A stretch of 63,989 bases of DNA, counting the filler, from Craspedostauros australis (taxonomy: Eukaryota), in the NCBI GenBank assembly GCA_030167865.1. It is 15 parts of 15 records of this genome, joined end to end, with 100 filler letters (N's around TTAATTAATTAA, not from the genome) between each part and the next. Parts side by side here need not be neighbours in the genome. Positions count along the whole stretch, not along the records: positions 44,021 to 45,858 come from JALAGF010000813.1; positions 45,959 to 47,652 come from JALAGF010000814.1; 13 more parts are not named here. One strand, given 5' to 3'. Positions 33,736-62,885 of the stretch are shown piece after piece. The position numbers and the translations under genes are program-made. The number at the start of each line of letters is the position of its first letter. Position 1 is the stretch's first letter. Below the pieces are notes generated by a model. It saw only the letters and a program-made list of their open reading frames with translations. It made no database searches and was not told the origin of the DNA.

Positions 33736-35356
33736 CTACAGCCACTTCTGCACGGCCTCGTGGCTCCATTCGTACAGCGCCTCCTGCACCGCCACGTTGC
33801 CAGTGCGCACGGAGGGCGCCATCCGCCGCAAGTTGGGCATCAGACGCTGTGCCACCAGCAGGAACAGCGCGAAGCCTTGGGCGATAGCGTCGCGCACGGG
33901 CAGCATGCTGTAGGCCCATTCCGGCAAAACGTTCATGATGTTGATCATCCATTCTGGATGCTGCGTGTTGGTGTAGAACTTGGGAACGGTGCTGGCGTTG
34001 GTATCATCATCCAGCATGGCTTCGAAGATCGACGCCAACCCGTAATCATCCGAATCATACGCCATGAACTTCAAGGCCTGGATGGCAGGCTCGCTGCCTG
34101 CGATCCGCGTGCCGACCCACGTGGGGCAGATGCTGACGGCCTCCATGGGTTGCCCGTCCTTGTTTGCAAAGCGACGGTTCAAGGCCTCTGCATGCAGGAT
34201 CTGCGCCAGCTTGGAATTGGCGTAGGAACGATTCACACGGAACACGAAGAAGCCGTGCGCACCGCCGGGTCGGCTGGCGATGGGGTTGCGCGCGGCGAAG
34301 GCAGGGACGTCGTCGTGTGGGGAGGGGCGCAGCTCGGTGACGTCGGCTCCGAAGTGGAACAGCGAAGAAATCTGGATGATCTTCGTTTTTGGTTGGGTGG
34401 ACTTTTCCAGCAGCGGCATCAGCTTTTCCGTGAGCAGGAAATGGGACAAGTAGTTGACTTTCATCGTAGTGGATGGCAGTGGGTGGAAGTGGATGCGGGC
34501 GTTGTGTGTTTGGTATGCAATGCAGATCGAAGAAGACGGTTGGTGAGCCTGAACAGTCGAGCATTTAGTTGTAGGTGCCGTTCCAGAATTGTTTGAGGAG
34601 AGCCGAGACGAATAAAGGAAAGAGCGAATGAGCAAGCTGCTGCAGTCCAGCTTACCGTCATCTCTTTGTTGGGATGGCACTGACAGCTCGGCCGCAAAAA
34701 GCAAACGCTTCTTCTTTTGCCATTGCTTCTCTGAACATCGAGGCCTCATGCAACTTGTGCATCCCCCTCAGAACTCCGTCGCAACTTCATCACGCATTGA
34801 TGCTTCACTCACCAGCAAACACCTGCTCATAGCCTTGCTTTGACAAATCTACTCCGCTCGCTGCACCATGGATGCCAGCATTGTTCACGAGCATATCCAC
34901 CCGATCGAATCGTTGCAGCATATCGTCTGCCCCCTTGGCGACCGAATCCAAATCGTTGAGATCGGCAATGACGGTCGACACGCCTTTATTCTCCTGCGCC
35001 AGACGCTCCAACTTGGAAGATGACCGACCAATGGCGATGACATGCGCACCCATCGATGACAGCCTGCGTGTGAGCCCCAGACCAATTCCAGACGTTGCTC
35101 CAGTGACGGCAATGACGAGCCCATCGAGTGGCGCCTTGTTTGCGATGTCGGCCGCATCATGTCTCATCAACTTGTGCGCTCGTGGAATGACGTTTCCTTC
35201 CCAATCGACTGTGGGCTTGGGCATGGCCAGGATGATGGCGCAGATCAGCACCAGCAATGCTGTGCCGTACATCATTAACGTCCATACGGAAATGGAAGCC
35301 TTTCGTGATGGTCTCGCAGCCGAGGCTGACCGGGAAGTTTCGCCACCTTTGCTCAT
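33736..35356 (-). CDS. Short-chain dehydrogenase/reductase (retinol-DH/WWOX-like), copy A; exons 35356-34813, 34457-33736
   Basis: N-terminal TM segment, TGATSGIG, LVNNAG, FA|VNYLSHFLLT, catalytic YANSK. Intron 34812-34458. Confidence 0.9.
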
Positions 35357-35854: not shown

Positions 35855-37454
35855 CTAGAGCCACGCTTGCACTGCCCCACGACTCCATTCGTACAACTCT
35901 TCCTGTGCTTCGATGTCACCTACACACGCGGAGGGTGCTCTTCGTCCCACCTTGGGTATCAGACGCTGCATGATCAACAAATATCCCGCGAATATATTGC
36001 CGACGATATCACGCAAAGGAAGCATGCTGTAGGCCCATTCCGGCAACGCATTCATGCTCTGGACAAGCAATTCCGGGTGTGCAGTGTTGCTGTAGAACTT
36101 GGGAACAGCGCTGGTGTTGGTATCATCATCCAGCATGGCCTCAAAAAATGAAGCCAATCCGTAATCATCCGATTCGAAGGCGATAAACTCAAATAAGTTG
36201 GCTAGACCGTCACCCGCGATGCTCGTGCCAACCCACGAGGGGCAGATGCTGACGACCTCCATGGGTTGACCCTCGCTCTTGGCGAAGCGTCGGTTCAACG
36301 CTTCTGCATGCAGAACTTGTGCAAGCTTGGAGTTCGTGTAGGAGCGAATGTCACGAAACAGGAGGAATCCATGCGCGCCACCGGGTCGGCTGGCGATGGG
36401 GCTCGGAGCAGCGGAAGCGGGGAGGTCGCGCTGTTTGGAAGGACGAAGGTCAGAGATGCCAGCTCCGAAGTGATACAGCGAGGACACTTGGATGATCTTC
36501 GTTTTTGGTTGGGTAGACTTTTCCAGTAACGGCATCAGCTTCTCGGTGAGAAGGAAGTGGGACAAGTAGTTGACTTTTGTTTGTGTAATGATGATAAGTC
36601 CGTTTGATTGCGTGTGGACGGATAGAAGAGGGAGAGTGGTTAGCAGAGTTTGTATGGCACTCGCATGATAGACACCGTTCCACGATTGTCCGAGGAGAGC
36701 AGGTGCGACCAAGGATGAGGTGCACAGAATCAAGAACCAAGGAACGCACAATGGCAGCTCCACCCTTGCATCCTTTCCTTTTCCGCAATTGCAATATCAT
36801 TCGTTTTCATCGTTTCTGTTGTTGTCGTTGCGACTTGAGATGGCGCAGTGATCGCAGAGTTCTCAAGATGATGCAAAGCACCAAAAGGCAAACATTGATG
36901 GTTCACTCACCAGCAAACACCTGCTCGTAGCCCTGCTTTGATACATCCATGCCCTGCACCGCACCATGGATGCCAGCATTATTCACGAGCATATCCACCC
37001 GATCGAATCGTTGCAGCATATCGTCTGCCCCCTTGGCGACCGAATCCAAATCGTTGAGATCCACAAGGACAGTCGACACGCCTTCATTCTCCTGCGCCAG
37101 ACGCTCCAACTTGGAAGGCGACCGACCAATAGCGATGACATGCGCACCCATCGATGACAGCCTGCGTGTGAGCCCCAGACCAATCCCAGACGTTGCTCCA
37201 GTGACAGCAATGACGAGCCCGTCCAGTGGCGCCTTGTTTGCGATGTCGGTCGCATCATGTCCCATCAACTTGTGAGCTCGTGGAATGACGTTTCCTTCCC
37301 AATCGACGGTGGGCTTGGGCATGGCCAGGATGATGGCGCAGATCAGCACCAGCAATGCTGTGCCGTACATCATCAACGTCCATACGGAAACGGAAGCCTT
37401 TCGTGATGGTCTCGCAGCCGAGGCTGACGGAGGAGCTTCGCCACCTTTGCCCAT
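35855..37454 (-). CDS. SDR copy B; exons 37454-36911, 36573-35855
   Basis: Same motifs as copy A, with YTNSK. Intron 36910-36574 at the same position and phase. Confidence 0.9.
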
Positions 37455-37998: not shown

Positions 37999-39645
37999 CT
38001 AGAGCCACCCTTGCACTGCCCCGCGACTCCATTCGTACAACTCTTCCTGTGCCTCGACGTCGCTGGCATGCACAGATGGCACCGTCCGTCCCACCCTGAG
38101 CATCAGGCGCTGCGTGGTCAGAATATATCCCGCGAATGAATTGCCGACGATATCACGCAAAGGAATCATGGTGAAGGTCCATTCTGGCAACGCATTCATG
38201 CTCTGGACAAGCAATTCCGGATGTACTGTGTTGCTGTAGAACTTCGGAACGGTGCTGGTGTTGGTATCATCATCCAGCATGGCCTCAAAAAGTGAGGCCA
38301 ATCCGTAATCATCCGATTCGAGCGCGATGAACTTCATGATTTCGGTGACAATGGGACCCCCAAGTTGCGTGGCTACGCACGAGGGGCAGATGCTGACTGC
38401 CTCCATGGGTTGACCCTCGCTCTTGGCGAAGCGTCGGTTCAACGCTTCTGCATGTAAGACCTGTGCAAGCTTGGAGTTCGTGTAGGAGCGAATGTCACGA
38501 TAGAAGAAGAATCCGTGCCCACCACCGGGTCGGCTGGCGATGGGACTCGGAGCAGCGGAGGCGGGGAGGTCGCGCTGTTTGGAAGGACGAAGGTCAGAGA
38601 TGCCAGCTCCGAAGTGATACAGCGAGGACACTTGGATGATCTTCGTTTTTGGTTGGGTCGACTTTTCCAGTAACGGCATCAGCTTCTCGGTGAGGAGAAA
38701 GTGGGACAAGTAGTTGACTTTTGTTTGTGCGTTGATGGTATCAAACGTAGCGCATAGTAGAATGGCAGATTTATTTGATTGTGTGTTGTTGTTGTGTGTT
38801 GGTGATTGTGGTGGATGCAAGTGTCAGGAGTTTGATCGCGTGGATAGAAGAGGGACAACGGCGAGCAGAGATTGTTTGGCCCCCGTCGTCGCGACTTCTG
38901 CGTCATCATCATCCAAATCGAGCGCAGGAGTGGGATCCGTGGCTGAGATGTTGTCGTACCGACATGAGAAAGCGCAAAAGTTGACTGTTCTCGTCTTTTT
39001 GTTGCGTCGACACCAACAGTTTGGCCCAGACAACCAGGTGCTTCCTCATCAACAGTACAAATTCACGTCAAATCTTCATTTGAAGCTCAACTCACCGGCA
39101 AAGACTTGTTCGTAGCCCTGTTTGGACACACGCTCTTTCTGCGCGAAGCCAATGACGCCTGCATTGTTCACGAGTATGTCCACATGATCAAATCGTTGCA
39201 ACATATCGTCTGCTCCCTTGGCAACTGAATCCAAATCGCCGAAATCGGCAAGCACGGTCGACACGCCTTCATTCTCCTGCGCCAGACGCTCCAACTTGGA
39301 AGATGACCGACCGATGGCAATGACGTGCGCACCCATCGATGAGAGCTTGCGCGTGAAGCTCAGGCCAATGCCGGATGTTGCTCCAGTGACGGCAATGACG
39401 AGCCCATCGAGCGGCGGCTTGCTTTCGATGTCGGCCGCATCATGTCCCATCAACTTGTGTGCTCGTGGGATGACGTTGCCTTCCCAATCGGTGGTAGGTT
39501 GGGGCGTGGCAAAGATGATGGCATAGAACAGCACCACCGATGCTGTGCCGTACTTTATCCAAGTCCATGCTGATGCGGAGCTGAAAGTCTTCCGTGGTTG
39601 CTTGTCAACCAACGCTGGCGGAGGAGCTTCGCCGCCTTTGCCCAT
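37999..39645 (-). CDS. SDR copy C; exons 39645-39096, 38717-37999
   Basis: Same motifs as copy A, with YTNSK. Intron 39095-38718. Confidence 0.9.
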
Positions 39646-40900: not shown

Positions 40901-42528
40901 GACGCGAGATCCAACTTCCATGCCGACATCGGGGCCTACATCTGCATCAACTACCACCTCGTTTGCATTTGATTCCAGCATCTCTGTGGCCCGCAAGCCA
41001 GATGTTGTGCCAGAATGCTTTCCGCTGGATGCATTCGACCCAAATGCCATCATCTGCAATCCATCCAAGACTTCGTGCCGCAAGGCTGTCACTGGTATTC
41101 GAAGCACACCGGAATTGCAGATTTACTTCGCATGCGCTGGTATCTTGGCCAAGGGGGATGCACGCAAGCTATTCAATTGATATGCGTCCAACCCCATACT
41201 TGCTGAGGAGCTGACACTGTTGTCCGCCGCTGGCACCACTGTGTTCGCAGCTCTGGGTGGCGATGACATCTACTATGTGTGCCAGAACGCTGGGGATCCA
41301 TGCTGCGCAGAGGATTGTGACTGTACCAGTTCCGACTATTACAGTTTCATGACCATTGCCACCACTGCCTGCATTGGGTCTGGATCTTGCGACAGGATGG
41401 GACTAAACACATTGGTCCTGGATTCATCCTGTACCAGCAAAGGGGCATGCGCCAGCGTGAACTCTCTTTATGTTTCCGATTGCTATGGTCCTCACCGAAC
41501 GTACGGTGTCACCTTCATTGGTCAACTGGCCTGCACTGATTCTCTTTCCTGCACCGTCGCTGGTGAATATCCCTACAGAGACGCCATCACACAAAGCGGC
41601 GCCTGCGTTGGACCCTACGCCCGTGCGGGCATTGGCTTCTGCATTGAACAGAACCGGGCCAGCCACTCCCGGAGCCACATCAGAATTGGGTCCAACGCAT
41701 GCCTTGGTGATCATGCATACGGCGGAGCACATGTGAGCTTTTACTACAACTGCGCATGCACACCGTCGCCGTCAGCTGGGAAGATCCAGGGCAGCTTGAT
41801 CATCGGCGACAATGCCTGCGCCGCAGCCTACGCTTGCGCAGGATTGGGATTCGGTGACTCAATGACGACTGACATCATTGTGCCAGAATATGGCTGTGAC
41901 AGCGGCGGCGCGTGCTACGAATGCATGACAAAAACCAACTGCGGCAGCGACGAAGTCTTCATTATCTACGATGCTGCTGTCACCTGCCCCAAAGACGTGG
42001 ATGGTTATGTAAGGGTCGAAAGGGTCGATCAATTCTGCATCAACAATGATCAACGCCCAACAGATTGCCCGACTTTCGCCCCCTACTCCGCTGGCAAGCG
42101 ATACCCCAACAATGATTCCGACAGAGCAGCCATCCGATCTGCCAACTTTTGTTCCAACAAACTCCCCGACCATCAACAACACCACCCTGCAGACCCTTTG
42201 CTTGAATGAGGCTGGGGAGGTTGCTGCAGGCTTCACCTCCAGACCAGTCATCCTCTGTGATGACGATGTGGGCACATGCACACAATTCGTCAACGACATC
42301 GAGTCTCTCCCAACAAACAAGGACAGGTTTGTGAAAAGCATCTTCGGATGCGATGACGACCAAGGCAGCCAGGCGTCGCAGCAACAGGCGCAGGTACGAT
42401 TCGATCACATCAAGAATGACCCCCAAGCAATCGTAGCCATCCTCACTGCTCTCGAAGGTGATGGCATCCTTCTCACTGCGAACGCCGCAAGCCTATCCAT
42501 GAGATGCGGTGCTGTGGGCGGGGCCTGC
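40901..42528 (+). CDS. Partial Cys-rich extracellular/cell-surface protein with PT-repeat linkers; intron 41095-41250; +1 frameshift at the C5 run 42079-42083
   Basis: Repeated (I)G..AC....AC units and PTxxPT/PS linkers. The GT...CAG intron joins two ORFs in phase. Removing one C gives CPTFAPTPLASDTPT. Truncated at both ends. Confidence 0.6.
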
Positions 42529-43920: not shown

Positions 43921-44371
43921 NNNNNNNNNNNNNNNNNNNNNNNNNNNNNNNNNNNNNNNNNNNNTTAATTAATTAANNNNNNNNNNNNNNNNNNNNNNNN
44001 NNNNNNNNNNNNNNNNNNNNATTCAAAGCTGTGACGAACAATGTTGGGAGGTGCGGCAATCACGGGTATTCCGACAAAGTCGTACCCTCGATTCCTAACA
44101 CACAAGGACTCACTTGCTTGGACTCACAGCTCTACCGCGGTTGTGGGGCTAGTGTGTCCCAACTCTTTGTGACCTTTTTGGCAGGTTGCTTGCGATCCAT
44201 GGCTGCGTACAAACTTCTGTAGACTTTGTACCATGAAATTGTTGATGTGTTCTGATTTGGATTTTATTGTTGTTACTGTGTGTTTTGGATTTTCGGGTTC
44301 TGGTATTATGTACATAAGCTTGGCCAGTTGTGTTGTGAAAACTGGAGTGAATTAGATTCCAAGAATCCTGG

Positions 44372-45858
44372 TTATTTCAATGATGTGAGGAGACCAATCT
44401 GAGTTGGAAGCGGTCTGGTGAATTTGGTCAATACTAGATCAAGATAGGTGAGCGCTGTCAGTTGACCAATCTCGGATGGAAGCTTCCCAGTCAAGCCAGT
44501 AGATGAAAGATCAAGGGAGGTGAGCGCTGTGAGTTGACCAATCTCGGATGGAAGCCGCCCAGTGACGTCGGCATATCCCAGAACAAGATTGGTGAGCGCT
44601 GTGAGTTGACCAATCTCGGATGGAAGCCACCCAGTGACGTCGGCATATCCCAGATTAAGCAAGGTGAGCGCTGTGAGTTGACCAATCTCGGATGGAAGCC
44701 GCCCAGTGACGTCGGCATATCCCAGATCAAGATATCTCAATGCTGTCAGTTGACCAATCTCGGATGGAAGCCGCCCAGTGACGTCGGCAAATCCCAGATC
44801 AAGGAAGATGATCGCTGTCAGTTGACCAATCTCGGATGGAAGCTGCCCAGTGAAGACGGTGGATCTCAAATCAAGATATCGCAATGCTGTCAGTCGACCA
44901 ATCTCGGATGGAAGCTGCCCGGTGAAGTCGACCCATAGTAGGTCAAGATATCTCAATGCTGTCAGTTGACCAATCTCGGATGGAAGCTGCCCAGTGAAGT
45001 CAATTCCTCTCAACTCAAGAATGGCGAGGGCTGTCAGTTGACCAATCTCGGATGGAAGCCGACCAGTGACGTCGGCATATCCCAGATCAAGAATGGTGAG
45101 CGCTGTCAGTTGACCAATCTCGGATGGAAACCGCCCAGTGAAGTCGGTGGATCCCAGATCAAGATTGGTGACCGCTGTCAGTTGACCAATCTCGGATGGA
45201 AGCCGCCCAGTGAAGTCGGTGGATCCCAGATCAAGATTGGTGAGCGCTGTCAGTTGACCAATCTCGGATGGAAGCTGTCCAATGAAATTGGTCCCTTCTA
45301 GATCAAGGAAGGTGAGCGCTGTCAGTTGACCAATCTCGGATGGAAGCTGTCCAGTGAAGTCGGTATATCCCAGATCAAGAGTGGCGAGAGCTGTCAATTG
45401 ACCAATCTGAGAAGGAAGTGGTCCAGCGAAGTCGTTGAACTCCAGGTCAAGACGTGTCAATTGCGGAAGTTGATACAATTCCGACGGAAACGCACCTCGC
45501 AGTCCCATGTACACTAGAGTTAGCTCTGAGAGCATGCTCAACATGCCAATATGACTGAAGATGATACCATCCATCTGTCGGCGGGAGCTATAAGTCATTT
45601 CCATTGACAATTGCTCAAGTTGCGAGAGATGATACAGGGCTGGATCGAGCGTGCCCCGCATGCCTTCGTCACCCAAAGCTACTTGTACCACATGGCCATT
45701 ATCGCATGTCACACCACCAGAGGAAGAGTGCCAGTCGCACACGTCAGCATCTGATAGAAAGCCCATCTTGTCGATCCAATTGGCTCCATCGAGTGAAAAG
45801 TATATGCTCACTACTGCATAGTACTCCAATAGACGCATGGCATTGGCTTGTGCATCTT
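44372..45858 (-). CDS. Leucine-rich repeat protein, version 1 (5'-partial): LRRNT-type cap plus 14 near-identical 24-aa repeats
   Basis: RLLEYYAVVSIYFSLDG.NW.....S..DVCDW...GVTC cap. Plant-specific-type LRR SEIGQLTALxxLxLxxxxFTGxLP with 72-bp period. The frame is open to the contig edge. Confidence 0.9.
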
Positions 45859-46309
45859 NNNNNNNNNNNNNNNNNNNNNNNNNNNNNNNNNNNNNNNNNN
45901 NNTTAATTAATTAANNNNNNNNNNNNNNNNNNNNNNNNNNNNNNNNNNNNNNNNNNNNATTCAAAGCTGTGACGAACAATGTTGGGAGGTGCGGCAATCA
46001 CGGGTATTCCGACAAAGTCGTACCCTCGATTCCTAACACACAAGGACTCACTTGCTTGGACTCACAGCTCTACCGCGGTTGTGGGGCTAGTGTGTCCCAA
46101 CTCTTTGTGACCTTTTTGGCAGGTTGCTTGCGATCCATGGCTGCGTACAAACTTCTGTAGACTTTGTACCATGAAATTGTTGATGTGTTCTGATTTGGAT
46201 TTTATTGTTGTTACTGTGTGTTTTGGATTTTCGGGTTCTGGTATTATGTACATAAGCTTGGCCAGTTGTGTTGTGAAAACTGGAGTGAATTAGATTCCAA
46301 GAATCCTGG

Positions 46310-47652
46310 TTATTTCAATGATGTGAGGAGACCAATCTGAGTTGGAAGCGGTCTGGTGAATTTGGTCAATACTAGATCAAGATAGGTGAGCGCTGTCAGT
46401 TGACCAATCTCGGATGGAAGCTTCCCAGTCAAGCCAGTAGATGAAAGATCAAGGAAGGTGAGCGCTGTGAGTTGACCAATCTCGGATGGAAGCTGTCCAG
46501 TGAAGTCAGTAGGTCCCAAATCAAGCCGAGCGAGGGCTGTGAGTTGACCAATCTCGGATGGAAGCCGCCCAGTGACGTCGGTATATCCCAGATCAAGCCG
46601 AGCGAGGGCTGTGAGTTGACCAATCTCGGATGGAAGCCGCCCAGTGACGTCGACAAATCTCAGATCAAGATAGGTGAGCGCTGTCAGTTGACCAATCTCG
46701 GATGGAAGCCGCCCAGTGACGTCGGCAAATCCCAGATCAAGATAGGTGAGCGCTGTCAGTTGACCAATCTCGGATGGAAGCCGCCCAGTGAAGTCGGCAT
46801 ATCCCAGATCAAGATAGGTGAGCGCTGTCAGTTGACCAATCTCGGATGGAAGCTGCCCAGTGAAGTCGACCCATATTAGCTCAAGATATCTCAATGCTGT
46901 CAGTTGACCAATCTCGGATGGAAGCTGTCCAGTGAAGTCGGCATATTCCAGATCAAGAGTGGTGAGAGCTGATAGTTGACCAATCTCGGATGGAAGCTGT
47001 CCAGTGAGGTTGCTGTTTTCCAGATCAAGATAGGTGAGCGCTGTCAGTTGACCAATCTCGGATGGAAGCTGTCCAGTGAAGTCGGCATATCCCAGATGAA
47101 GAGTGGCGAGAGCTGTCAGTCGACCAATCTCGGATGGAATCTGCCCAGTGAAGTCGGTATATCCCAGATCAAGAGTGGCGAGAGCTGTCAATTGACCAAT
47201 CTGAGAAGGAAGTGGTCCAGCGAAGTCGTTGAACTCCAGGTCAAGACGTGTCAATTGCGGAAGTTGATACAATTCCGACGGAAACGCACCTCGCAGTCCC
47301 ATGTACACTAGAGTTAGCTCTGAGAGCATGCTCAACATGCCAATATGACTGAAGATGATACCATCCATCTGTCGGCGGGAGCTATAAGTCATTTCCATTG
47401 ACAATTGCTCAAGTTGCGAGAGATGATACAGGGCTGGATCGAGCGTGCCCCGCATGCCTTCGTCACCCAAAGCTACTTGTACCACATGGCCATTATCGCA
47501 TGTCACACCACCAGAGGAAGAGTGCCAGTCGCACACGTCAGCATCTGATAGAAAGCCCATCTTGTCGATCCAATTGGCTCCATCGAGTGAAAAGTATATG
47601 CTCACTACTGCATAGTACTCCAATAGACGCATGGCATTGGCTTGTGCATCTT
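46310..47652 (-). CDS. Leucine-rich repeat protein, version 2 (5'-partial): same cap and end, 12 repeats
   Basis: Flanks match version 1 (44021-44516 = 45959-46454; 45351-45858 = 47145-47652, compared by eye). The central array differs and is 144 bp shorter. Confidence 0.9.
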
Positions 47653-52174: not shown

Positions 52175-54208
52175 CTCGAATCCACCCTTGACGCGATGTT
52201 CACCGACACGGACACCACCGCCAAAGCCATGGCAGACTTCAACCGTTCCGAACGATGCGGCAAACGCCACCACAACCAAGCTTGGTTGAATGCCATCGGG
52301 GAACACAAGAAGGCACTCTCCAACGCATCCGCGACCAGCATCTCATCTGGGTCAGAAGCATCTACCCATAGAACCGGACGCGACAACGACAGCCACCNNN
52401 NNNNNNNNNNNNNNNNNNNNNNNNNNNNNNNNNNNNNNNNNNNNNNNNNNNNNNNNNNNNNNAACTTCCAGAACGAAACCCAACTCTCCAGCATCGCCAA
52501 GCAAGGATCACAAAACACGTCACCAGTGATCATCGACACCCGCGGTACCACCCCGCCCAACGAAGGTACAGAACCAGGCACCGACTACGACCAACACCCT
52601 GGTAACGACGATACCGTAGACGTACCCGAAAACCGCGGCCCCACAGGACGGAACCGACTCTTCCCCAACGTAGACCCCGCGACGATCGGCGACTACAACC
52701 GCAACCCAACCGGCGCCAAGGTAGTAACCTTCGCCCCCGAAACGACCGCCGGAGGCCCAGGAGGTACCAACGCACCCCGGATGAACTACCCAGAGAACGA
52801 CGGGAACCGCCCACCCCACGATCGGAACCCGCATTCCTACCACGGTTCCGCGGATACACCAGCCTCACACGGCATGAGTAACTATCGAGACGACAACGGG
52901 CACGAACCCGTGAACCGAAACCCTGCCGGCAACCCACCCGCGAACCATGGGACAAACCGCCTGCACCGTGACAACCATGGACCGCCAATTAACCATGGAC
53001 ACAACAACGGTAATCCGTATGGGTATCCCCCTAACCTGGGAAACCAACTCCCTCATGGCCCACCGATTCCGATGTACCACGGNNNNNNNNNNNNNNNNNN
53101 NNNNNNNNNNNNNNNNNNNNNNNNNNNNNNNNNNNNNNNNNNNNNNNNNNNNNNNNNNNNNNNNNNNNNNNNNNNNNNNNNNNNNNNNNNNNNCCCTCAC
53201 CCCGGGTATCCACCACGACCACCCGCGTATGGGTACCGCCCAACCGATCCCAATGGAGGTTTCGGAAGACATGACCCTCGCAACATGGGCCCGAACACCC
53301 CACACGGGCACCACGAACCCGGGTATACACCCCATCGAGGATCCACCCGCAGCGAACCACCAGTCGCCCAGGCCAAACTAACGAAGCGACGCCCCATCCC
53401 TGACTCCGTCAAATTCACGAGCGATGCAGCATCCTTCCAAGTGGTGAAACACCAAATCCATGCCCACCTCCTTGGAAACGACATGGCATACCTGATCAAC
53501 GACCAGTTTCGGCACCGATACCATTCCCAAGGAATCCACGCGATCAAGGACCACATTGACCCAGTGACAGGAGTGCCAACAACCACCTCGCCAGAACAGG
53601 TCGCGAGCGACGTCAGGACCCTATTCGCGGGACTATACTCCGTCTTCGCCGGCGGCCCAGCACATGGACTCNCCACCAGAGGACTCCTCACCNAGGANGG
53701 NATCCTATTCTGGAATGAACTCCTCAATACCTACGATAACGACTGGATCCGAGGAATGGAGGTCGACTCTCTGATGAAGAGGGTACACGACTTCAATCCC
53801 AGCAGACAGGACCTGGGATCCTACGTGAAGGAAATCCAGGATACATTCGCGAACGTGAATTTCCTGGCGACCAACCCGGATCAACAAGTCTCCGACGCGC
53901 AACAACGCCGCACGCTCCTTAACCACCTCATCGGTTGCGACGACATCAACGTTCGCACCATGGTCCGGAGNNNNNNNNNNNNNNNNNNNNNNNNNNNNNN
54001 NNNNNNNNNNNNNNNNNNNNNNNNNNNNNNNNNNNNNAGGGACAATGCGGTAGCCAACAACCAGCGGGGATCAAGGTCCGGCAAACGCAGGATCTTCAAG
54101 GCAACCGCCGAAACCAACCAAGATCAAGGTGAATCCAACACCGAGATGGTCATCAATGCCATCTCGAAGAAACTACAGGAGGATCCCACCTTCATCTCAC
54201 AAGAAGTA
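52175..54208 (+). mobile_element. Gag-like ORF fragment, probably Ty1/Copia (CoDi-like)
   Basis: P/N/G/H-rich N-terminal part, then helical WNELLNTYD...SYVKEIQDTF...SDAQQRRTLLNHL, as in Copia gag. Internal N gaps. Confidence 0.55.
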
Positions 54209-54308
54209 NNNNNNNNNNNNNNNNNNNNNNNNNNNNNNNNNNNNNNNNNNNNTTAATTAATTAANNNNNNNNNNNNNNNNNNNNNNNNNNNNNNNNNNNN
54301 NNNNNNNN

Positions 54309-55470
54309 GCTGCATGCTTCTTTTGTAGCAGGCTCTCTGTGATCGTCGTGTTCGAGATCGCAGCATTGTTGTCACATGATGCGATTACTGGCCACTTGAC
54401 TTGCACCCTCAGCAATTGGAGTGCACATTGTAGCACAATGATCTCTTCTGCCACGGATCCCATGACATTGAATTNGGNGCCNTATGTTGAAGTTGNNGCT
54501 GATGATTGCCTCTTGCTTGAGAAGTATACTGGTGTTCTTCCAAGGCATAGAATGATGCCAGCATTGGATCTTCATGTGACTCAATTGTGTGCATGATCGC
54601 CATTGATGAATGCATACATTGGCAGTTGTCGGTAGATCAGCTTTGGCGATCTGTTGTTGATTTCCTCTGATGCTTCTGGGTATTCCTCCTTCATCTGCAA
54701 GGCCATTTCTGGATTGGATGGTGTTGCATTGAAGTTGTTAAATATCATCGGGCGAGAGTCAATCTGTGTTTGCAATGTGGACTTGTGCTCCAGATATCCC
54801 CATACTTTGATGGCTCTCTCAAGGCGTCATTTGCAAGATGATGCAGTGAAACGTGAAAGTGAAGAAGTTGCAAATGCAAAATCAAAACGTCCAAGTTGAA
54901 CAACTCAGTTCATCATCCTGATGAGCTGCTGGAACTGGTGTTGTTAGTCAGGTGTTAGTAGTTTGGAGTCATCCGTTTCCAGATGATTCTTGTTCTGCGT
55001 GGGACCATGATGGTTGTGTATTGATCCCTGTTGTTGTTCCAACTTGTCCAATGCATTTGCAATGTATTTGCTGCAGGCAGTCTTGCAGCAGATACTGTGA
55101 TAACTCCTGATCCACAGCCACCGTTGGACCTCAAGAAGCCAATCGTCCACATGAGTGATGTCATTCTGCTTCCGCTGATGCTGCACGAGAGTGCCCGCAT
55201 GCACTCTGCGGCATTGGCTGCAGTGGGTTGCCATCAGTGTGTCCACATGGCATGTCATGATGCTCAAAATATCAAGCCATCCCAACAATACGGCGTTTGA
55301 CATTGACATGTTGTCATCTGGCAACAATCCACATGCTGACATCACCTGGAACAGCATGAATGACCAAGAGCAGCTACACGTTTTCGACATCACCCCTGGA
55401 CATCGTGCTTGTCGCATTCCGTAGTGGCGATCCAGACTGCGGCATTCATATCTCATGGATAACGCGAACA
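54309..55470 (-). mobile_element. Degenerate Ty1/Copia RT-RNaseH fragment
   Basis: YGMRQA, HVDDWL (YVDD) and RNase H AEEIIVL..ALQLL.V....P....CDNNAAI....ESLLQKKH. Confidence 0.8.
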
Positions 55471-55899
55471 TGAGGTGTGGACCCTGGGCAATGTGGCATA
55501 TTGGCAAGTTCTGCTCACGGATACTCTTGCGACTGTTGACGGTGGTGGTGGTGGTTGTTACTATTTCGTTTGCTATTTCATTGTGTTGTTCTGGTGCCTC
55601 TTGGAGTCTCCCAATACTCTTGGTGTCTCTCAACTATCGTCCGACTATGAGTTGGCATGTGAGATGCTCTCTTGCTATTTCTTGTATTCTCTCGCTCTTT
55701 CTCTCTCTCTCGTGTGTTGGTACTGCGCGATAATCAGTGTTAGATACATACTCTGTATTCAATACATACTCCATCATTTCGTCATCTACTGGTGCACTAC
55801 TCTGTGAGTATTTGCCAATGTCTCATCTGAACTCCTCCTTGCATATCCACAATCTTGATGTCACTTGGTCATTGAATCTTCNNNNNNNNNNNNNNNNNN

Positions 55900-57003
55900 G
55901 ACATGATGACATCCTGTTGATGTCAGCTGTTGTCTTCCATGATCCTTCAGATTCCATATTCCATCGATGATGCAGTGGTATGGTGAGGATATCATCATTT
56001 GAGGTTTAGTTATGAAATACATCGATCCTTGCTCGATGTCATGCATTTCTGTCAGTTGATGGACAGACTGCATTCCTGATGCTCTCAGAAATGATTGTTC
56101 ACAAATGCCCTTCCGAAATTCTGATTTTTGTGTGTGCCCGATTTTGTGATGTGATTTTGATCAACCACAGATCAATCACAGATCACTCATGACGCAAATG
56201 TTTGCGCCGCTTGTGCGTAGAGCATAAGAGAACAATGGGTGAGCGATGCACATACACATATGTACATTCCAACAGGCAAAGCAGCAATCACAGGGCACAC
56301 ATTCACAGCTACTCTGGCTGCTACGGATTTCTGGCTGTTCATTGCTGCCACAACCATGGAGAACAAGACCATCTATGGCACTGACATTTACAATGCATTT
56401 GCTGAGGCTTCTTGTGGTGCACAGAAGTACTACATGCATGTTGACAGCCCCTTTGCTGAATGGTGGCAGTCGTAGGGACGCGCACCCATTCCGTGTGGCT
56501 GCATGACTCTCATCAGTAAGAATCTTCAGGGTCATTCCTGAGCACTATGGCAGTGGGCGGTGCACATTGATGCATAGCTGAAGCGCATGGGTTTCAGGCC
56601 CATCATGCATGCTCTATGCCTATACTGCGGCGCTTACAAAGAACACAACATGCTCTTTCTATGTCAGGTTGATGACTTTGCCATTGCATGCAGCGATGTA
56701 GCGGCTTCCTCCACGATCTGCGATGAGCTTGGATTTGTTCCTGTTCATTCCCATGAAATGATTCAGCGTTCTCCAACACTTCATTGGTGCGGATCTGATC
56801 CAAACTNCCACACATGTCTCCATCCACAATAGNANACANCTCAANAAGGTTTTCAAATGGAATGAACAGAAGAAGATGAATGGTGCGCTCACTCCAATGG
56901 ATGATGGCAATGCGCACATACGCAAGCTGGATGATTCTGAAGCCTTGGATGCATGCGGCCTCAAGCAGGTACAGGCAGACATTGAATGCTATTGTGAGGC
57001 TAT
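55900..57003 (+). mobile_element. Second degenerate Ty1/Copia RT fragment (CoDi-type QVDD)
   Basis: IYGTDIYNAFAEA, YMHVDSPFAEWW, QGH, MGFRP..H..CLY, LFLCQVDDFAIA. Confidence 0.8.
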
Positions 57004-57103
57004 NNNNNNNNNNNNNNNNNNNNNNNNNNNNNNNNNNNNNNNNNNNNTTAATTAATTAANNNNNNNNNNNNNNNNNNNNNNNNNNNNNNNNNNNNNNNNN
57101 NNN

Positions 57104-58359
57104 CAGAAGCAGGAAAGGAGATTCGCTTCCTCACGCAACTGATGGAGGACATCGGCTTGACGATGACCAAACCAGTGGATGTGTATGTGGGCAATGTGGG
57201 GGCTATCTTCATTGCCTCCAATCCGTCTACATCAGCACGAACGAGACACATCGATATACGACATCATTTCACCCGGGAGCTGATAGACAACGGAGAGGCA
57301 CGGATTCAATTTGTNNNNNNNNNNNNNNNNNNNNNNNNNNNNNNNNNNNNNNNNNNNNNNNNNNNNNNNNNNNNNAGACACAAAGGGAGTATCATTCAAT
57401 TGAGATCGACCATGGATTAATGGGACAGAAGAGATGAGTGCGAGAGCGAGACAAGGGAGTGTAACGAGAGATGATTTGTGAGTGTAAGTGAGTATGGTGG
57501 TGCGACAATGGAAGGGTGTCAGGAATCGGGGGTACGACTTTGCAAAGATACCCTGTTCTACCGCAGCTCCCATTAGGACTGACTAGAATCGGAATGGTAT
57601 TAAGTGCAAAGATACCCATGATTGCCGCAACCCCCAATAGCATCTCCCAGACAAACCGCAACCCAGCAATCGACCAGTTGCACTCGGACAGCCCAATGGC
57701 CTTACCTGTCTTATGCGACATCCAAGCACCCTCATCCAGTGGCCTACTCGGCCATGTCCCGATAACGGTCGGGAACGGAGAGATCTATGAGGACAGCAAC
57801 ACACCAGCCCACGAGTGAATCGAGTGAGCGCGACAACCAATATATCTGAACAAGTCGACGCGTCCCTGAGAACCTAATGTGAGAAAGCGAAACAGAGGCG
57901 ACCCCTATTCACCCAAGACCACGATCCGGACGATAAGTTCCAAACATCCAAAAAGGCAACCATCGAGATGACCGGAGGGAGGAACTGATAATCAGCACTT
58001 ACACACAGGACAAGAGGGGAGCACCAAACACTGCACTTACTACGCCGCCAGGGTGATCAAGCCAAGAGGTGGAGTCGGTGTGTTTGGTGTTGTTGTTGTT
58101 GCTATTAGTTGNNNNNNNNNNNNNNNNNNNNNNNNNNNNNNNNNNNNNNNNNNNNNNNNNNNNNNNNGATGGTGCCTATTGCACGGTTGCTAACGTGCTG
58201 CTCGATTACCTCGTGGTTTCTCTCGCAGTCTTTTCTAAAACATTGCCCAAGATGGCATGTCGATCTACACGATATCTCGTGTTATTCTCGCCTTTGGGTC
58301 TTTCTACATCTCTGTCTGATCTTGTCTAATCTTGCCTGGTCTTGGCTGGTCTTAGAATC
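57104..58359 (+). mobile_element. Ty1/Copia 3' end: RNase H, PPT and probable 3' LTR starting at 57517
   Basis: EAGKEIRFL..L...V.V.NVGAIFIASN..SARTRHIDIRHHF.RE. Purine run GGAAGGG (57510-57516) is immediately followed by TGTCAG. Confidence 0.8.
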
Positions 58360-58959
58360 NNNNNNNNNNNNNNNNNNNNNNNNNNNNNNNNNNNNNNNNN
58401 NNNTTAATTAATTAANNNNNNNNNNNNNNNNNNNNNNNNNNNNNNNNNNNNNNNNNNNNCGGGCTATCGCGGTGTTTTGTTCATTGACCTTTTGCACCTC
58501 ATCTTCACGCAGTAACACGCACATTTGTCGTGTTGTCTCCGTGCTAATTTCATCTGCAATTGCATGAGATCATGTCATGCCTCTATCATGCTCACAGTTC
58601 CAAGAAGACAATCTTGTGAGCTCGACAGCATNNNNNNNNNNNNNNNNNNNNNACAGTAAACAAACACTCTCCTCACCAACAACAACGACTTGATCACTCT
58701 ACGTTCTCGGTGCGGTATCCTTCACACCCATCTACGATTACGTTCTAACATGTCACGCTGTACAGCGTTCTGAGAATATGTGCATAGACATTGGCAGTCA
58801 TATTCAACTCCAACACTTTGGTGAATCCGAACGCATTCCACAGAGCACAGACATGGGGTTTGAAGCTGTGAATCCTCCAGGAAGACGTATCAGTATGCGC
58901 CCAGGTGATCCACATGTCATGACGCCGCTCAGTGACACTCCACTTCAGCATCCGTAGAA

Positions 58960-59587
58960 ATGGACCTCTTCCAAACGGATATGGGACTTCAACCTCCATG
59001 GCAACAGCCTTCGGAGTCTACTTGACGCAATGCGGTTGGTCGGATCTCTCCAGCCAGCTGGCCGAATGAATGCATCCGCAGAAGGCTGCACAGCGCAACG
59101 CGCATCGGAAAGCCCCCTCCCAAACAGCATCACCAGATATCCTTATCCCTAGCTTTGGATCGCTTCCAGATAGATCCAATACTTCAAACTTCATGGCCGC
59201 ACCCATTGGAGTGTGGTCGGAGTCATCCAAGCATTCGATTACAATATGGCCAACATTTTATATGCACGTATTCTCAGAACATTCTACAGCGTGACACGGA
59301 CGGTTCAATACAGTGTGATATCAGCATTCATAGATTGCGATCCCTTCCAAACGGATAAAGAACTTCAAACTTCATTTTCATACTCTTTGGCGTATGATTG
59401 GTGTGGTCGGAGCGTTGGATTGGAATACAATTGCCAGTTCCTGTGTACAAACATCCAAATTAATGTACAGTGCGATGCGTACCAATCACTACTGTGTGAT
59501 ATTTGCATTCATAGAATTGGATCCGTTCCTGATGGATCAAAGACTTCAAAATTCATGTCCGTACTCTCTGGAGTATGATTGGAGTAG
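58960..59587 (+). repeat. Diverged tandem repeat with ~181-195-bp period (4 units)
   Basis: A TGGAtc.cTTCCa.a.gGAT....ACTTCAAacTTCATg...GGAGT motif recurs at about 58960, 59155, 59336 and 59517. Confidence 0.75.
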
Positions 59588-60422
59588 NNNNNNNNNNNNN
59601 NNNNNNNNNNNNNNNNNNNNNNNNNNNNNNNTTAATTAATTAANNNNNNNNNNNNNNNNNNNNNNNNNNNNNNNNNNNNNNNNNNNNCATTTCGCAATTG
59701 ACTGGCGTGCTCTGAGCAACGTGGAGAAGTACATGATGCATCTCCATCAATTGCAACCAACGCATACCGAGTAACACTCCCGTGGCTTGGACACCGAACG
59801 CTTTCGACACAATGAACACAAGAGTGTATTACAACTCAACTCTCTCGAGAGCATGGATTTCCGAAGGCATCGCTCCATTCACATCCTTGCAACCGTTGAT
59901 TGTGTAATCCCACACAATTCCAAACCAAAGAAAGCATCGACAGGCTATCCTACACTATCCTTCCATACATCTTCCATACATCTCCCATACATCTCCCATA
60001 CATCGTCCAGACGAGCATCCACATCTCAGGTTGGAGCGATCTCTCAGGAGGTCAAACAATAAATCCCGACGATCGCACACTCACAAAGACTGACGAAAAC
60101 GAGAAACACTATCGGCGACGGCGACGACGACGGCGAAGAAGGGAGCGACCAAGCAATTGATCCAAGAGAGAGGGCGACCAAGGAAACGCAGCAGCGGCAG
60201 TGCAAGTATCGGTTGCGTCCACTGAGTGACTGAGTGTATGCGAGAGACGCCAATCCAGGCATTGAACGCATAGATTCAGGTACATGTGACTGCGACGGCA
60301 ACTCCAGCTTCGATTCCAGTCAGAAAAACGCAACCAGCAATACCACCAGCACATCATCAACCGCACCAACATCAAGATCAATAACAATACCCATACTCAT
60401 ACGAGAACAGCATACGTGCACA

Positions 60423-60960
60423 ATGGCCATCCCAGAAAGCCCATCGCAAAAGTCACCCCGCTCTGTGAGTCGTTCACAGAGAGCCGCACCTTCGACGCCC
60501 GCTCCCGTGTTCAACACCAAGCGCAGGCAGAGGAGAACACCGACCTCCCAGGAGCATCGGGAAGCCACACTGCAGCAGCAACGCCGAACCTCGCTGCCAG
60601 CCTCGCCTATTCCAAGATCGAACAGGCGAGAAGTGCTACATCCAGCAACGCCGCCACCTGCCGCGGCAATTCGCAGTACGCGGCGCAGCTCGGATTCAAT
60701 GGTCGCCCACGCTCGATCGCAGCAGGTCGTAGCGGAGACCCGGCGAAGGAGAAACACGGTGCAGTTCACTCAGATGCCGGATATCTTCGAGTTCCCCATC
60801 ACTCTCCACGCACCCTGCAGCATGGACGTGCAACCACTCAAGTCGTGTCTTTCGCCCGAGTCCTGGTCTGCAAGATCCGAGACGTTGAGGGTCCGATTCT
60901 CGACCGTCCAAGTCCAGGAGATGCAGACCATCTTGGATACCGGCGGCGCCATGGTTCCGT
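60423..60960 (+). CDS. 3'-partial hypothetical protein (S/P/R-rich; TVQF, LKSCL and RVRF motifs)
   Basis: Open frame to the contig edge. RVRFSTVQVQEM.TIL resembles the family at 1655. Confidence 0.5.
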
Positions 60961-61060
60961 NNNNNNNNNNNNNNNNNNNNNNNNNNNNNNNNNNNNNNNN
61001 NNNNTTAATTAATTAANNNNNNNNNNNNNNNNNNNNNNNNNNNNNNNNNNNNNNNNNNNN

Positions 61061-62885
61061 GTTGTACGCTGCAGACAGCGACGCTTTCACGCGCATGGGA
61101 TTTGCGTGCAGTTGTACGTACCAGTCAGTTTTGGTCCTGTTGTCATCCATCAATTGCTCGTGTGCTTCGTGTTCGGACGGTCTGTTTTTCGGGTCCTTCG
61201 CGGACGCTTCACTGATGTCCTTCAACTTGTCCGCGATGTATTCTGGTAGTTCCGCTGGTTTGCGCGTTGTTTTGCTCGCCCAGCCTGGCACTGCAAGTGG
61301 TGGATGTTCTGTTTCTGCNNNNNNNNNNNNNNNNNNNNNNNNNNNNNNNNNNNNNNNNNNNNNNNNNNNNNNNNNNNNNNNNNNNNNNNNNNNNNNNNNN
61401 NNNNNNNNNNNNNNNGTGCGCCCGAGTTTTCGCGTCTTGTCCGTCTTCCTGAACGATTCGGACGTTATCGGCAGCTTGTCGGACGTGATTGTTCTGTCCT
61501 CGATGACGCCCAACTCGTTGATGATCCACCCTTCCCATTCAGCGCTCTTCACCACGACGTCTTCCGTGATACCAGATGCAGCCACCAACTGTGCCTGGTC
61601 ATCATCATACTTCACCTCGTGAGTTTGACGTACCTGTTGTCCAGACGCTCGGAATCGTCTTTTTGGTGCGCCTGGAAGCGTGGTGATGTTGCCTNNNNNN
61701 NACGACGCGTTAACAAGCACCGTTGTTGTCCCTGCGATGCTACCGGCTTTCAGTGCTTCGTAGAGTTGGCGGGCGGTCTTGATGTCACGTCCGCTTTGCA
61801 CGTATTTTCGCAGTACACGGGTGATGAAGGCGAAGTGGGTGTCCAGCATGCTCTTACCAGTTTGGGCCTCTGTGTAAATCCATGCGATGATTTTGGCCGC
61901 CTTTCGTTGCCGGAGGTTCTTGTTGAGTACCGATGTGATGAGCGCGATGTGCTCGTGACTGGCAAAGCAACACGCATTATTGCTCTGTAAGATGATTTCA
62001 GTCACGGATGGGTGAATGCCTTTGACCTTTTTTTGCACAATGTCAAGCAGTCCACCAACTTGAAGAGTGTCTTGTGTCGGTCTTCCGCCGACCACAATGT
62101 CAATGAACCGAAAAGTAAAAATGTCATTGCGACACGTGATGACCATCGCCCCAAGCAGTGACATTCCCTTTTCCCCCCAATATTCTTGTTGGGCTTCGCT
62201 TTGGCCTGTCGGTAGAATTTTTTGCTTATGGTCGAGTACCACATAGGCTCTTTCAGGCTTGTTGTTGAGTTCGGATTGATATAAAGCAATTTGTCCGAAT
62301 TGAACTTTGGCACGCACTTTGTGAGCCATGTAATTAATGATTTCATCAGCGAATCCCGGCGCTGCCGCAAGCATTGATTGCAATTCGTCCTTGTGTTCTG
62401 CAAGTTCGTTGTCCTTAAGCATTTCGATGAATGGGACAAAACGATCATTCACAAATCGCATTGCTGCGCCACAACGGTTGCATACTTTACGTGGTTGTTC
62501 GTTTGTTGTGACCACAGGAATGTCATTTGTGATGATTGGAATGTTGTTTGTGATGGTGGTGTTCTTCTTGCGCTTGTGCTTGTTGGTGCGTGGCTTGCGT
62601 TGATTGGTTGATGTGGTTGTTGCCTTCTTCTTCTCCTTTCCTGTGATGAGTGCGAACNCAGCCGAATGCATGGGGTCGTCACACTCATGCTGCATGTGNG
62701 ACGCGGTGAATTCCCATTTGACGAACACAACAAGCAGTTCGAGCGCATGCGAGAGGGACTCTGCTGTGCGCACATGTGGTGAGATGACGTCATCTGGCTC
62801 GTTGTTGTCATGGTGGGTCTTGTCATTGGCATCGTTTTTCTCCTCGCCCCCCACTTCATACTTAGCCTTCAGCAGGTCGACTAGG
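61061..62885 (-). mobile_element. Large DDD-type transposase fragment, Sola3-like (catalytic part)
   Basis: VVLDHKQKILP...EAQQEYWGEKGMSLLG, LQS(N)NACCF, EAQTGKSMLDTHFA. The pattern D..K.LP..E.Q..WG..G.S / SDNA.CY / E.Q.GK..D is recalled from a large-transposase family. The Sola3 label is tentative. Confidence 0.65.

Follow-up and report, generated by a model that had tools for sequence, protein, structure and literature searches.

We analysed a 63,989-nucleotide stretch of DNA from Craspedostauros australis (assembly GCA_030167865.1; hereafter the window), a chain of 15 contigs with N-TTAATTAATTAA-N spacers between them, and found that two adjoining contigs carry two versions of the 3′ part of one leucine-rich repeat (LRR) gene of a diatom. 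The versions share identical flanks and differ in the number and sequence of the 24-residue units between them. The reading that we prefer, at roughly even likelihood, is that both versions are real and most likely represent the two haplotypes of a diploid cell. We infer that the solenoid of this gene is encoded by a 72-bp coding minisatellite of high internal conservation, which unequal exchange or gene conversion would have reshaped.

Contig A (JALAGF010000813.1; 44021-45858, 1838 bp) and contig B (JALAGF010000814.1; 45959-47652, 1694 bp) both carry the gene on the minus strand. Their initial 496 bases and final 508 bases are identical (0 differences over 1004 nt), and the cores between these flanks, at 44517-45350 in A (834 bp, from the end of unit 1 to inside unit 13) and 46455-47144 in B (690 bp), differ in length by 144 bp, or 2 × 72. 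In each contig a minus-strand frame, the sole frame open across the array, runs uninterrupted from the contig end to a TAA stop and encodes a partial protein of 494 residues in A (P0001) and 446 residues in B (P0002). Both proteins start with 146 identical non-repetitive residues and continue in 24-residue units. The non-repetitive N-terminal part, a cap-like module (W..C.W..V.C pattern) with irregular LRRs, lies at 45419-45856 in A and, in identical form, at 47213-47650 in B. It is followed by 14 full 72-bp units in A (44411-45418, with unit 1 at 45347-45418) and, by period and unit reading, 12 in B (46349-47212), and then by a truncated last unit (LPTQIGLLTSLK) with its stop (44372-44410 in A, TAA at 44372-44374; 46310-46348 in B, TAA at 46310-46312). 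The 351 bases 3′ of the stop are identical in the two contigs (44021-44371 and 45959-46309), lack a long open reading frame (ORF) and are probably 3′ untranslated region; they contain a single AATAAA, at 44263-44268 in A and 46201-46206 in B. The reading frame leaves the contig at 45858 (A) and 47652 (B), and the 5′ end of the gene lies outside both. A first-pass annotation of the window, made from the sequence alone, had described two versions with identical flanks of 496 and 508 bp and with 14 and 12 units, and both sequence comparison and the reading of units confirm this. Among the 15 contigs, A and B are the sole related pair; a tblastn search with P0002 found no match in the other 13 contigs, and an Rfam search over the whole window gave none.

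The anatomy of the repeat is directly established. Tandem Repeats Finder reports a period of 72 with 14.7 copies in A and 12.7 copies in B, at 82-83% matches, and the units, counted as 14 full plus one truncated in A and 12 full plus one truncated in B, are spaced by exactly 24 residues. A 216-bp super-repeat that the same program proposed for B was dropped, its fit being 82% matches against 83% for period 72. The scaffold 20-mer quoted in the first-pass annotation has 24 copies at one mismatch or fewer (22 of them exact), all inside A and B, where 0.01 would be expected by chance.

Correspondence between the two arrays is confined to their edges. A1 and B1 are 1 nt apart, as are A13 and B11, and A14 is identical to B12, while none of the internal units (A2-12 and B2-10) is identical across the contigs, as had been noted before; the nearest counterpart is 3-12 nt away. 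The 20 internal units have a mean pairwise DNA identity of 82.8% (range 68.1-98.6). In a unit-level alignment the edges and the pair A7/B5 stay in step and two A units have no partner; across its nine aligned internal pairs 82 of 648 nt differ (12.7%), compared with 0 of 1004 nt in the flanks. Near-duplicates are private to each array, with A3 and A4 1 nt apart and B6, B7 and B8 related in 2-nt steps. Edge units that are alike between versions but unlike the internal ones are what is expected of exchange inside a tandem array. The individual motifs listed in the first-pass annotation are all present, TF.D.EG in A2, RY.D.LW in A7, AI.E.RG in A6, AR.D.GP in B10 and TY.D.RF in B8. So are the related modules that it placed two units out of step (RYLDLLWVD in A7 and RYLELIWVD in B5; GFADV in A9 and B7) and the local duplicates that it assigned to each version (TNLDLGSTD in A3 and A4; ARLDLG in B9 and B10).

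The place of the variation within the unit is equally plain. Across the 25 distinct units, amino-acid entropy reaches 1.1-2.6 bits at positions 5, 6, 8, 10-14 and 17 and is at most 0.48 elsewhere. The five xxLxLxx positions (5, 6, 8, 10 and 11), on which variation had been said to pile up, are all among the nine most variable of the 24 (P = 0.003). The constant part of the unit is conserved beyond its amino acids: an exact 23-nt scaffold (codons L-P-S-E-I-G-Q-L) opens 21 of 26 units. The earlier claim that the scaffold is almost invariant even at silent sites holds for this 23-nt stretch and for L7, to which silent-site invariance is confined. It does not extend to L1, A3, L9 and G16, whose silent sites use 3-4 codons each (Ala-3 uses four codons, with a proportion of synonymous differences, pS, of 0.65). 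Because unit 1 of both contigs encodes the same residues with other codons (CCT TCT CAG), and other codons are likewise used for the PSE motif in the irregular repeat that immediately precedes the array, the invariance of the scaffold does not reflect a codon requirement. Synonymous divergence (dS) rises from 0.056-0.12 in the scaffold to 0.37-0.39 in the variable block, a contrast that is itself a direct observation. Had the units duplicated recently and then come under positive selection, dS would be low throughout. Because dS is low in the scaffold and high in the variable block, the pattern fits old, diverged cassettes set in a continually homogenised scaffold.

We then considered whether the variable positions bear a mark of selection. 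The ratio of nonsynonymous to synonymous differences (pN/pS) is 1.41 over the nine variable codons (bootstrap over units 1.09-2.06, the units being non-independent samples) and 0.17 (0.12-0.24) over the other 15 positions. At positions 12-14 and 17 it is 1.90 (1.16-5.90). For the five beta-face positions alone, the ratio is 1.23 (0.96-1.72), an interval that spans 1 and fits relaxed constraint as well as positive selection, and the interval excludes 1 only once the four flanking variable positions join the five. On the selection proposed in the first-pass annotation, the per-position analysis shows a large contrast between the variable and the constant positions and a ratio above 1 for the nine codons together, though not for the beta face by itself, and the evidence for positive selection over relaxed constraint is weak.

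These values bear on a neutral explanation, in which the gene encodes a structural or adhesive surface protein whose exposed residues are unconstrained and whose unit number drifts, with no recognition repertoire. We consider this explanation a serious possibility, although somewhat unlikely. The beta-face interval agrees with it, and with silent divergence at 0.37-0.39 in the variable block, time can explain much of the amino-acid diversity. Further, diatom proteomes are described as rich in kinase-less transmembrane LRR proteins, for which roles as pheromone receptors or adhesion molecules have been proposed (PMC6261938). The ratios of 1.90 at positions 12-14 and 17 and 1.41 over nine codons speak for selection instead, and the face looks patterned rather than random: 20 of 25 distinct units retain Asp-8 and 19 of 25 retain Asp-13, and Tyr, Phe or Trp are frequent at positions 6 and 11. 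The array has a predicted isoelectric point of about 4.1, with 36 Asp and Glu against 16 Lys and Arg in A. Such an acidic and aromatic patterned surface is of a kind used for binding, and the variable face may have a binding role.

Comparison of half-units reveals that the arrays are mosaics of cassettes, again a direct observation. The ALRY N-half (GCATTGAGATAT), which lies 6 nt from the commonest cassette and carries linked silent changes, is found in A7, A10 and B5, each time followed by a different C-half, and A10 and A12 have identical C-halves. A9 and B7 have a 24-nt C-half in common, and their N-halves differ at 4 of 12 nt. The unequal recombination or gene conversion put forward in the first-pass annotation is supported by these recombined half-units, by the private duplicates and by a length difference in whole units; a formal test does not add to this. 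Three points, in fact, weigh against a simple recombinational account. The pairwise homoplasy index (PHI) test for recombination on the 25 distinct units is not significant at any of three window sizes (p = 0.11, 0.35 and 0.91). The share of informative site pairs that are incompatible is 38.5% at any distance, and recurrent mutation at hot sites could also yield this. Finally, B holds private cassettes that do not occur in A (ALAR, ENSNLTGQ, GPTDFTGQ and RFVDVTGR); because of these, B is not a simple reshuffle of A, and they suggest further donors or point mutation. The recombinational reading of the array is well supported qualitatively.

A mechanism of the following kind would account for this structure. 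The variable block of each unit would form the beta-strand face (positions 5, 6, 8, 10 and 11) and the adjoining ascending flank (positions 12-14 and 17). Homology every 72 bp would be available in the identical 23-nt scaffolds and in the conserved CTTGAT at L7-D8, and such tracts could drive slippage, unequal exchange between sisters or homologues, and short-tract gene conversion. Through these events whole and half units would be gained, lost, copied and recombined, so that unit number moves in whole steps, and the same events would homogenise the scaffold while older, diverged cassettes are reshuffled. The array would then change far faster than its flanks, with only the edge units keeping their place, and the products would be solenoids of differing length with differing residues on the concave face and adjoining flank.

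The cassette-like mosaic is also the one feature that would agree with somatic diversification within a clone, akin to that of lamprey variable lymphocyte receptors, in which case many variants would exist among cell lineages, A and B being two of them. We consider this very improbable, as there are two versions only, and no incomplete germline gene, flanking cassette bank or further scaffold copies occur elsewhere in the window.

We next asked whether both arrays exist as assembled. The unique left flank is joined to two different unit-1 ends and the unique right flank to A13 in one contig and B11 in the other, which are 1 nt apart; with two ways in and two ways out, each flank must be present in the genome at least twice. 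A single long array traversed twice was considered and rejected, since each unique flank leads into two distinct units. No exact repeat within A exceeds 65 nt and none within B exceeds 61 nt, and exact matches between the cores reach at most 62 nt. For words above 65 nt each array traces one path only, which an assembly from long reads or with large k could have resolved.

The state of the assembly is nevertheless a reason for caution. A and B begin and end at the same bases and adjoin in the file, and they look like two exported paths of one short-read assembly graph, so that the assembly-bubble caveat attached to the first-pass annotation was apt. Several small contigs (52175-62885) contain scaffold gaps of 7-111 N and isolated single Ns. 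These gaps and single Ns suggest a short-read scaffolded draft, which bears on the trust to be placed in the arrays. One explanation is consequently that the arrays were partly mis-threaded by a short-read graph assembler, through switches between haplotypes or paralogues or through dropped units, such that the units are real and their order and number are not. This could co-occur with either an allelic or a paralogous origin. Beyond the identical ends, the adjacent file positions and the gaps and single Ns of other contigs, it would be in line with the sequence shared by the cores for words of 62 nt or less, and with published failures of Illumina assemblies to recover such repeats reliably, which the available portions of two reports describe (PMC12222747, PMC6868369). 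We think it unlikely to explain the two arrays, given the unbranched, unique path of each array at words above 65 nt, the two entries and two exits that call for at least two arrays, frames that stay open over 494 and 446 codons, and a length difference that is an exact multiple of 72.

A public sequencing run, X1, the only one found, was compared with contig A in the form of short contigs of 93-329 nt. Eighty of these short contigs fall on contig A, 37 of them at least 99% alike, 21 at 95-99% and 22 at 90-95%. X1 verifies neither array A nor array B and is no reliable guide to expression. One X1 contig joins 45216 to 45313 and omits 96 bases, not a whole number of 72-base units; its probable source is a related gene whose array runs in another phase. 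Another, of 176 nt, ends at 44248, 15 bases past the AATAAA, and differs from contig A at 4 of 176 letters; X1 is not on record as RNA, and this end is a coincidence worth checking rather than evidence of a transcript end.

Diatom cells are diploid in the vegetative state, and the finding of exactly two versions is what a diploid predicts. Allelic status is thus our preferred reading of the pair, and several observations count against it. Because both contigs look like exported paths of one graph, the identity of their flanks may have arisen by construction and is then uninformative. X1 gives no cover at 44021-44206, 44579-44640, 44889-44950 and 45075-45136, three of which lie in array A and would also be in keeping with mis-threading. 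X1 further holds several distinct variants, 90-97% alike, of the N-terminal region at 45467-45858; relatives of the gene are multi-copy in the X1 organism, which favours paralogues. Published experience points the same way as the gaps in cover: short-read assemblies of highly conserved repeats omit or create repeats, as set out in an excerpt on fungal genes (PMC12222747), and such repeats are unreliably recovered from Illumina assemblies according to part of a second account (PMC6868369).

If the two versions were recent paralogues, from a duplicated segment or a multigene family, the array mechanism would be the same and exchange would take place between loci. This is possible, if rather unlikely, in our judgment. 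The several N-terminal variants in X1 are what it would lead one to expect, a duplicated segment with collapsed identical flanks would also end contigs at the same bases, and the B cassettes missing from A suggest other donors. Set against this are the count of exactly two versions and the lack of a third copy or any other LRR gene in the other 13 contigs, although the window is a tiny sample of the genome. Identical flanks beside a core diverged by 12.7% need fast array turnover whether the versions are paralogues or, as we prefer, haplotypes.

To place the protein among known LRR families, we compared its sequence and predicted fold with those in databases. Pfam reports LRR families only, with LRR_14, LRR_1 and LRR_8 above cut-offs. 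The plant-specific 24-residue LRR consensus is LxxLxxLxLxx(N)xLxGxIPxx, and L1, L4, L7, L9, G16, L18 and P19 are conserved in 23-25 of the 25 distinct units. The plant-type ladder Asn at position 12 is found in 0 of 25 (Thr 11, Ala 9, Val 3, Ile 1, Ser 1), and Thr, which like Cys is an accepted ladder substitute at this position, is present in only part of the units. Among solved proteins, those nearest in sequence are the ectodomains of plant LRR receptors, such as FLS2, PEPR1, GSO1, MIK2 and ERL. A single-sequence AlphaFold2 model has a mean predicted local distance difference test (pLDDT) score of 74.6, with 70-96 over the array and the first ~100 residues poorly modelled. It forms a regular solenoid in which each unit contributes one strand (positions 6-8) and one short helix (20-24), and its best Foldseek matches are MIK2, ERL2, FLS2, RGFR1 and BRI1. 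The first-pass call of an LRR gene in an alga therefore stands, with Pfam, sequence and fold together placing it in the plant-type 24-residue class.

The N-terminal part has many distant relatives. Pfam does not report the cap LRRNT_2 (PF08263) at E ≤ 0.01, while HMMER aligns residues 11-150 at 30-38% to capped LRR modules, and a HMMER search with the N-terminal 150 residues finds 33,654 proteins at E ≤ 0.001. A word-based protein search with residues 1-150 gave no match, which is a limit of its sensitivity, as HMMER found thousands. Many of the relatives are giant proteins of 700-7800 residues in which a capped module of ~130 residues, at 30-40% identity, occurs 5-28 times; three that were looked at are bacterial-looking multi-module LRR proteins. 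The capped module (45407-45856, residues 1-150 of P0001) is single and N-terminal in diatom proteins and arranged like beads on a string elsewhere. Named diatom proteins from Stephanocyclus and Seminavis align to the N-terminal module at 33% and 27%. The diatom homologues P0008, P0012, P0017 and P0044 have an N-terminal hydrophobic stretch, judged by eye, and a C-terminal LRR region that ends the protein; identity to named diatom proteins is only 38-45%, which does not imply orthology. In metagenome contigs, an exact scan for the 23-nt scaffold gave 0 matches, and of 93 stretches that matched a pattern for the N-terminal 150 residues none was confirmed as a relative.

Among the nearest Atlas clusters of the LRR protein, those at ranks 1, 2 and 8 (170-176 shared features) are Bacillariophyta. 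On the largest contig, a RagA-like ORF finds named full-length matches at ~65% identity in pennate diatoms (Nitzschia, Seminavis, Cylindrotheca and Bacillariaceae). These pennate-diatom matches and the Bacillariophyta clusters identify the organism as a diatom, and the gene is, judging by sequence, a diatom gene of the kinase-less LRR kind. No kinase domain was found: the stop comes right after the truncated last unit and the 351 bases beyond it hold no long ORF, although a downstream exon is possible. Nor does the protein have a Roc or COR match in Pfam. The visible N-terminal part resembles an extracellular-type LRR cap, which argues against a NOD-like receptor (NLR). The best explanation of these features would be a kinase-less, plant-type extracellular LRR protein that ends just past its solenoid and whose 5′ end lies beyond the contigs.

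Four known systems offer parallels. In mechanism, the closest would be the repeats with high internal conservation (HIC) in the sensor domains of fungal NLRs, such as the het-d/het-e WD40 repeats of Podospora anserina, as described in an extract of PMC12222747. As in that description, one gene holds tandem coding repeats whose DNA identity exceeds 80% (82.8% here), hypervariability is limited to a few codon positions per repeat, which in HIC repeats sit on the binding surface, and short-read assemblies are unreliable. Unequal crossing-over or concerted evolution makes HIC alleles differ in how many repeats they have and in what order; here two versions have 14 and 12 units and are probably allelic. 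Unlike the fungal repeats of the extract, those described here are LRRs of 72 bp rather than WD40 repeats of 126 bp, belong to a diatom protein of extracellular plant-like type and have no NACHT or NB-ARC part in the visible portion of the gene. They also show high silent divergence in the variable block, which gives the cassettes the look of old sequence and not of recent mutation.

In taxon and unit size, the nearest counterpart appears to be the LRR-ROCO exons of Ectocarpus, which with LRR-kinase genes are candidate receptors in the part of the study drawn on here (Zambounis et al., 2012; PMC3341825). Both come from stramenopile algae and have 72-nt/24-residue LRR modules that are shuffled. 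In Ectocarpus, positively selected sites lie on the concave face (PMC3341825), and here variation is concentrated there. By contrast, each LRR of the Ectocarpus genes is its own exon, as that account has it, and shuffling occurs between exons, whereas the units of A and B are contiguous in one frame of 494 or 446 codons. The likeness to Ectocarpus LRR-ROCO and NB-ARC genes drawn in the first-pass annotation accordingly fails on anatomy, as the units do not form exons of their own and nothing of a ROCO or NB-ARC part is visible. Further, there is no Roc-COR or kinase part, the protein stops after its LRRs, and the consensus is of the plant-specific GxIP type.

The model suggests that plant extracellular LRR receptors are the closest parallel in fold. 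FLS2, PEPR1, MIK2 and ERL share the 24-residue LxxLxxLxLxx.xLxGxIP unit and are nearest by both sequence and predicted structure; the diatom protein differs from them in the absence of Asn at position 12 (0 of 25), in that LRRNT_2 was not detected and in having no C-terminal transmembrane helix or kinase. The plant extracellular group also takes in Cf-type receptor-like proteins and PGIP, and in the Cf-4/Cf-9 family the xxLxLxx positions vary and repeat number varies by unequal crossing-over. Plant receptors are not known to come near the DNA identity between units of arrays A and B, which is far higher.

In organism and architecture, the gene seems to come closest to the kinase-less LRR proteins of diatoms. 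MRP2 and MRM2 of Pseudo-nitzschia multistriata are, in the passages of the study available, transmembrane LRR proteins of this kind (PMC6261938), and like them the gene has a diatom LRR region without a kinase. The repeats of the named diatom proteins are, by eye, much less uniform. Kinase-less transmembrane LRR proteins are abundant in diatom genomes and two are mating-type biased, as the same passages relate (PMC6261938), and two Pseudo-nitzschia LRR receptor-like genes are listed with Ka:Ks above 1 in part of another study (PMC5485032).

These parallels raise the possibility that diatom cell-surface LRR loci are built like fungal HIC receptors. Intragenic shuffling of old half-unit cassettes, made possible by a homogenised DNA scaffold, would then give each haplotype its own binding surface and each individual its own repertoire for recognising mates, bacteria or parasites, kept by diversifying or balancing selection. 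We offer this as a speculative proposal that is more likely wrong than right by a wide measure, and the self/non-self or pathogen recognition suggested in the first-pass annotation is likewise pure conjecture. To our knowledge, how diatom cells recognise partners, bacteria and parasites at their surface is largely unknown. If the proposal were true, a locus that swaps its ligand-facing residues by cassette on a fixed scaffold would be a concrete candidate for such recognition, and one that is easy to amplify for population surveys and binding studies. This is a known way of evolving binding surfaces; among the top-ranked literature matches, searched by title and abstract opening, we found no description of highly conserved or hypervariable LRR arrays in diatoms, which is no proof of absence. 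The arrays also carry a warning, as they lie at the limit of short-read assembly, and unit counts and orders in draft diatom genomes need long reads.

Two further observations concern other contigs of the window. On a 17-kb contig, three long tandem ORFs on the minus strand (33736-34767, 35855-36796 and 37999-38823) share long near-identical stretches (e.g. KVNYLSHFLLTEKLMPLLEKSTQPKTKIIQ), and by sequence one gene seems to have been triplicated in tandem. On a 1.6-kb contig, a 342-codon open frame on the plus strand (41181-42209) is rich in Cys, Gly and Ala.

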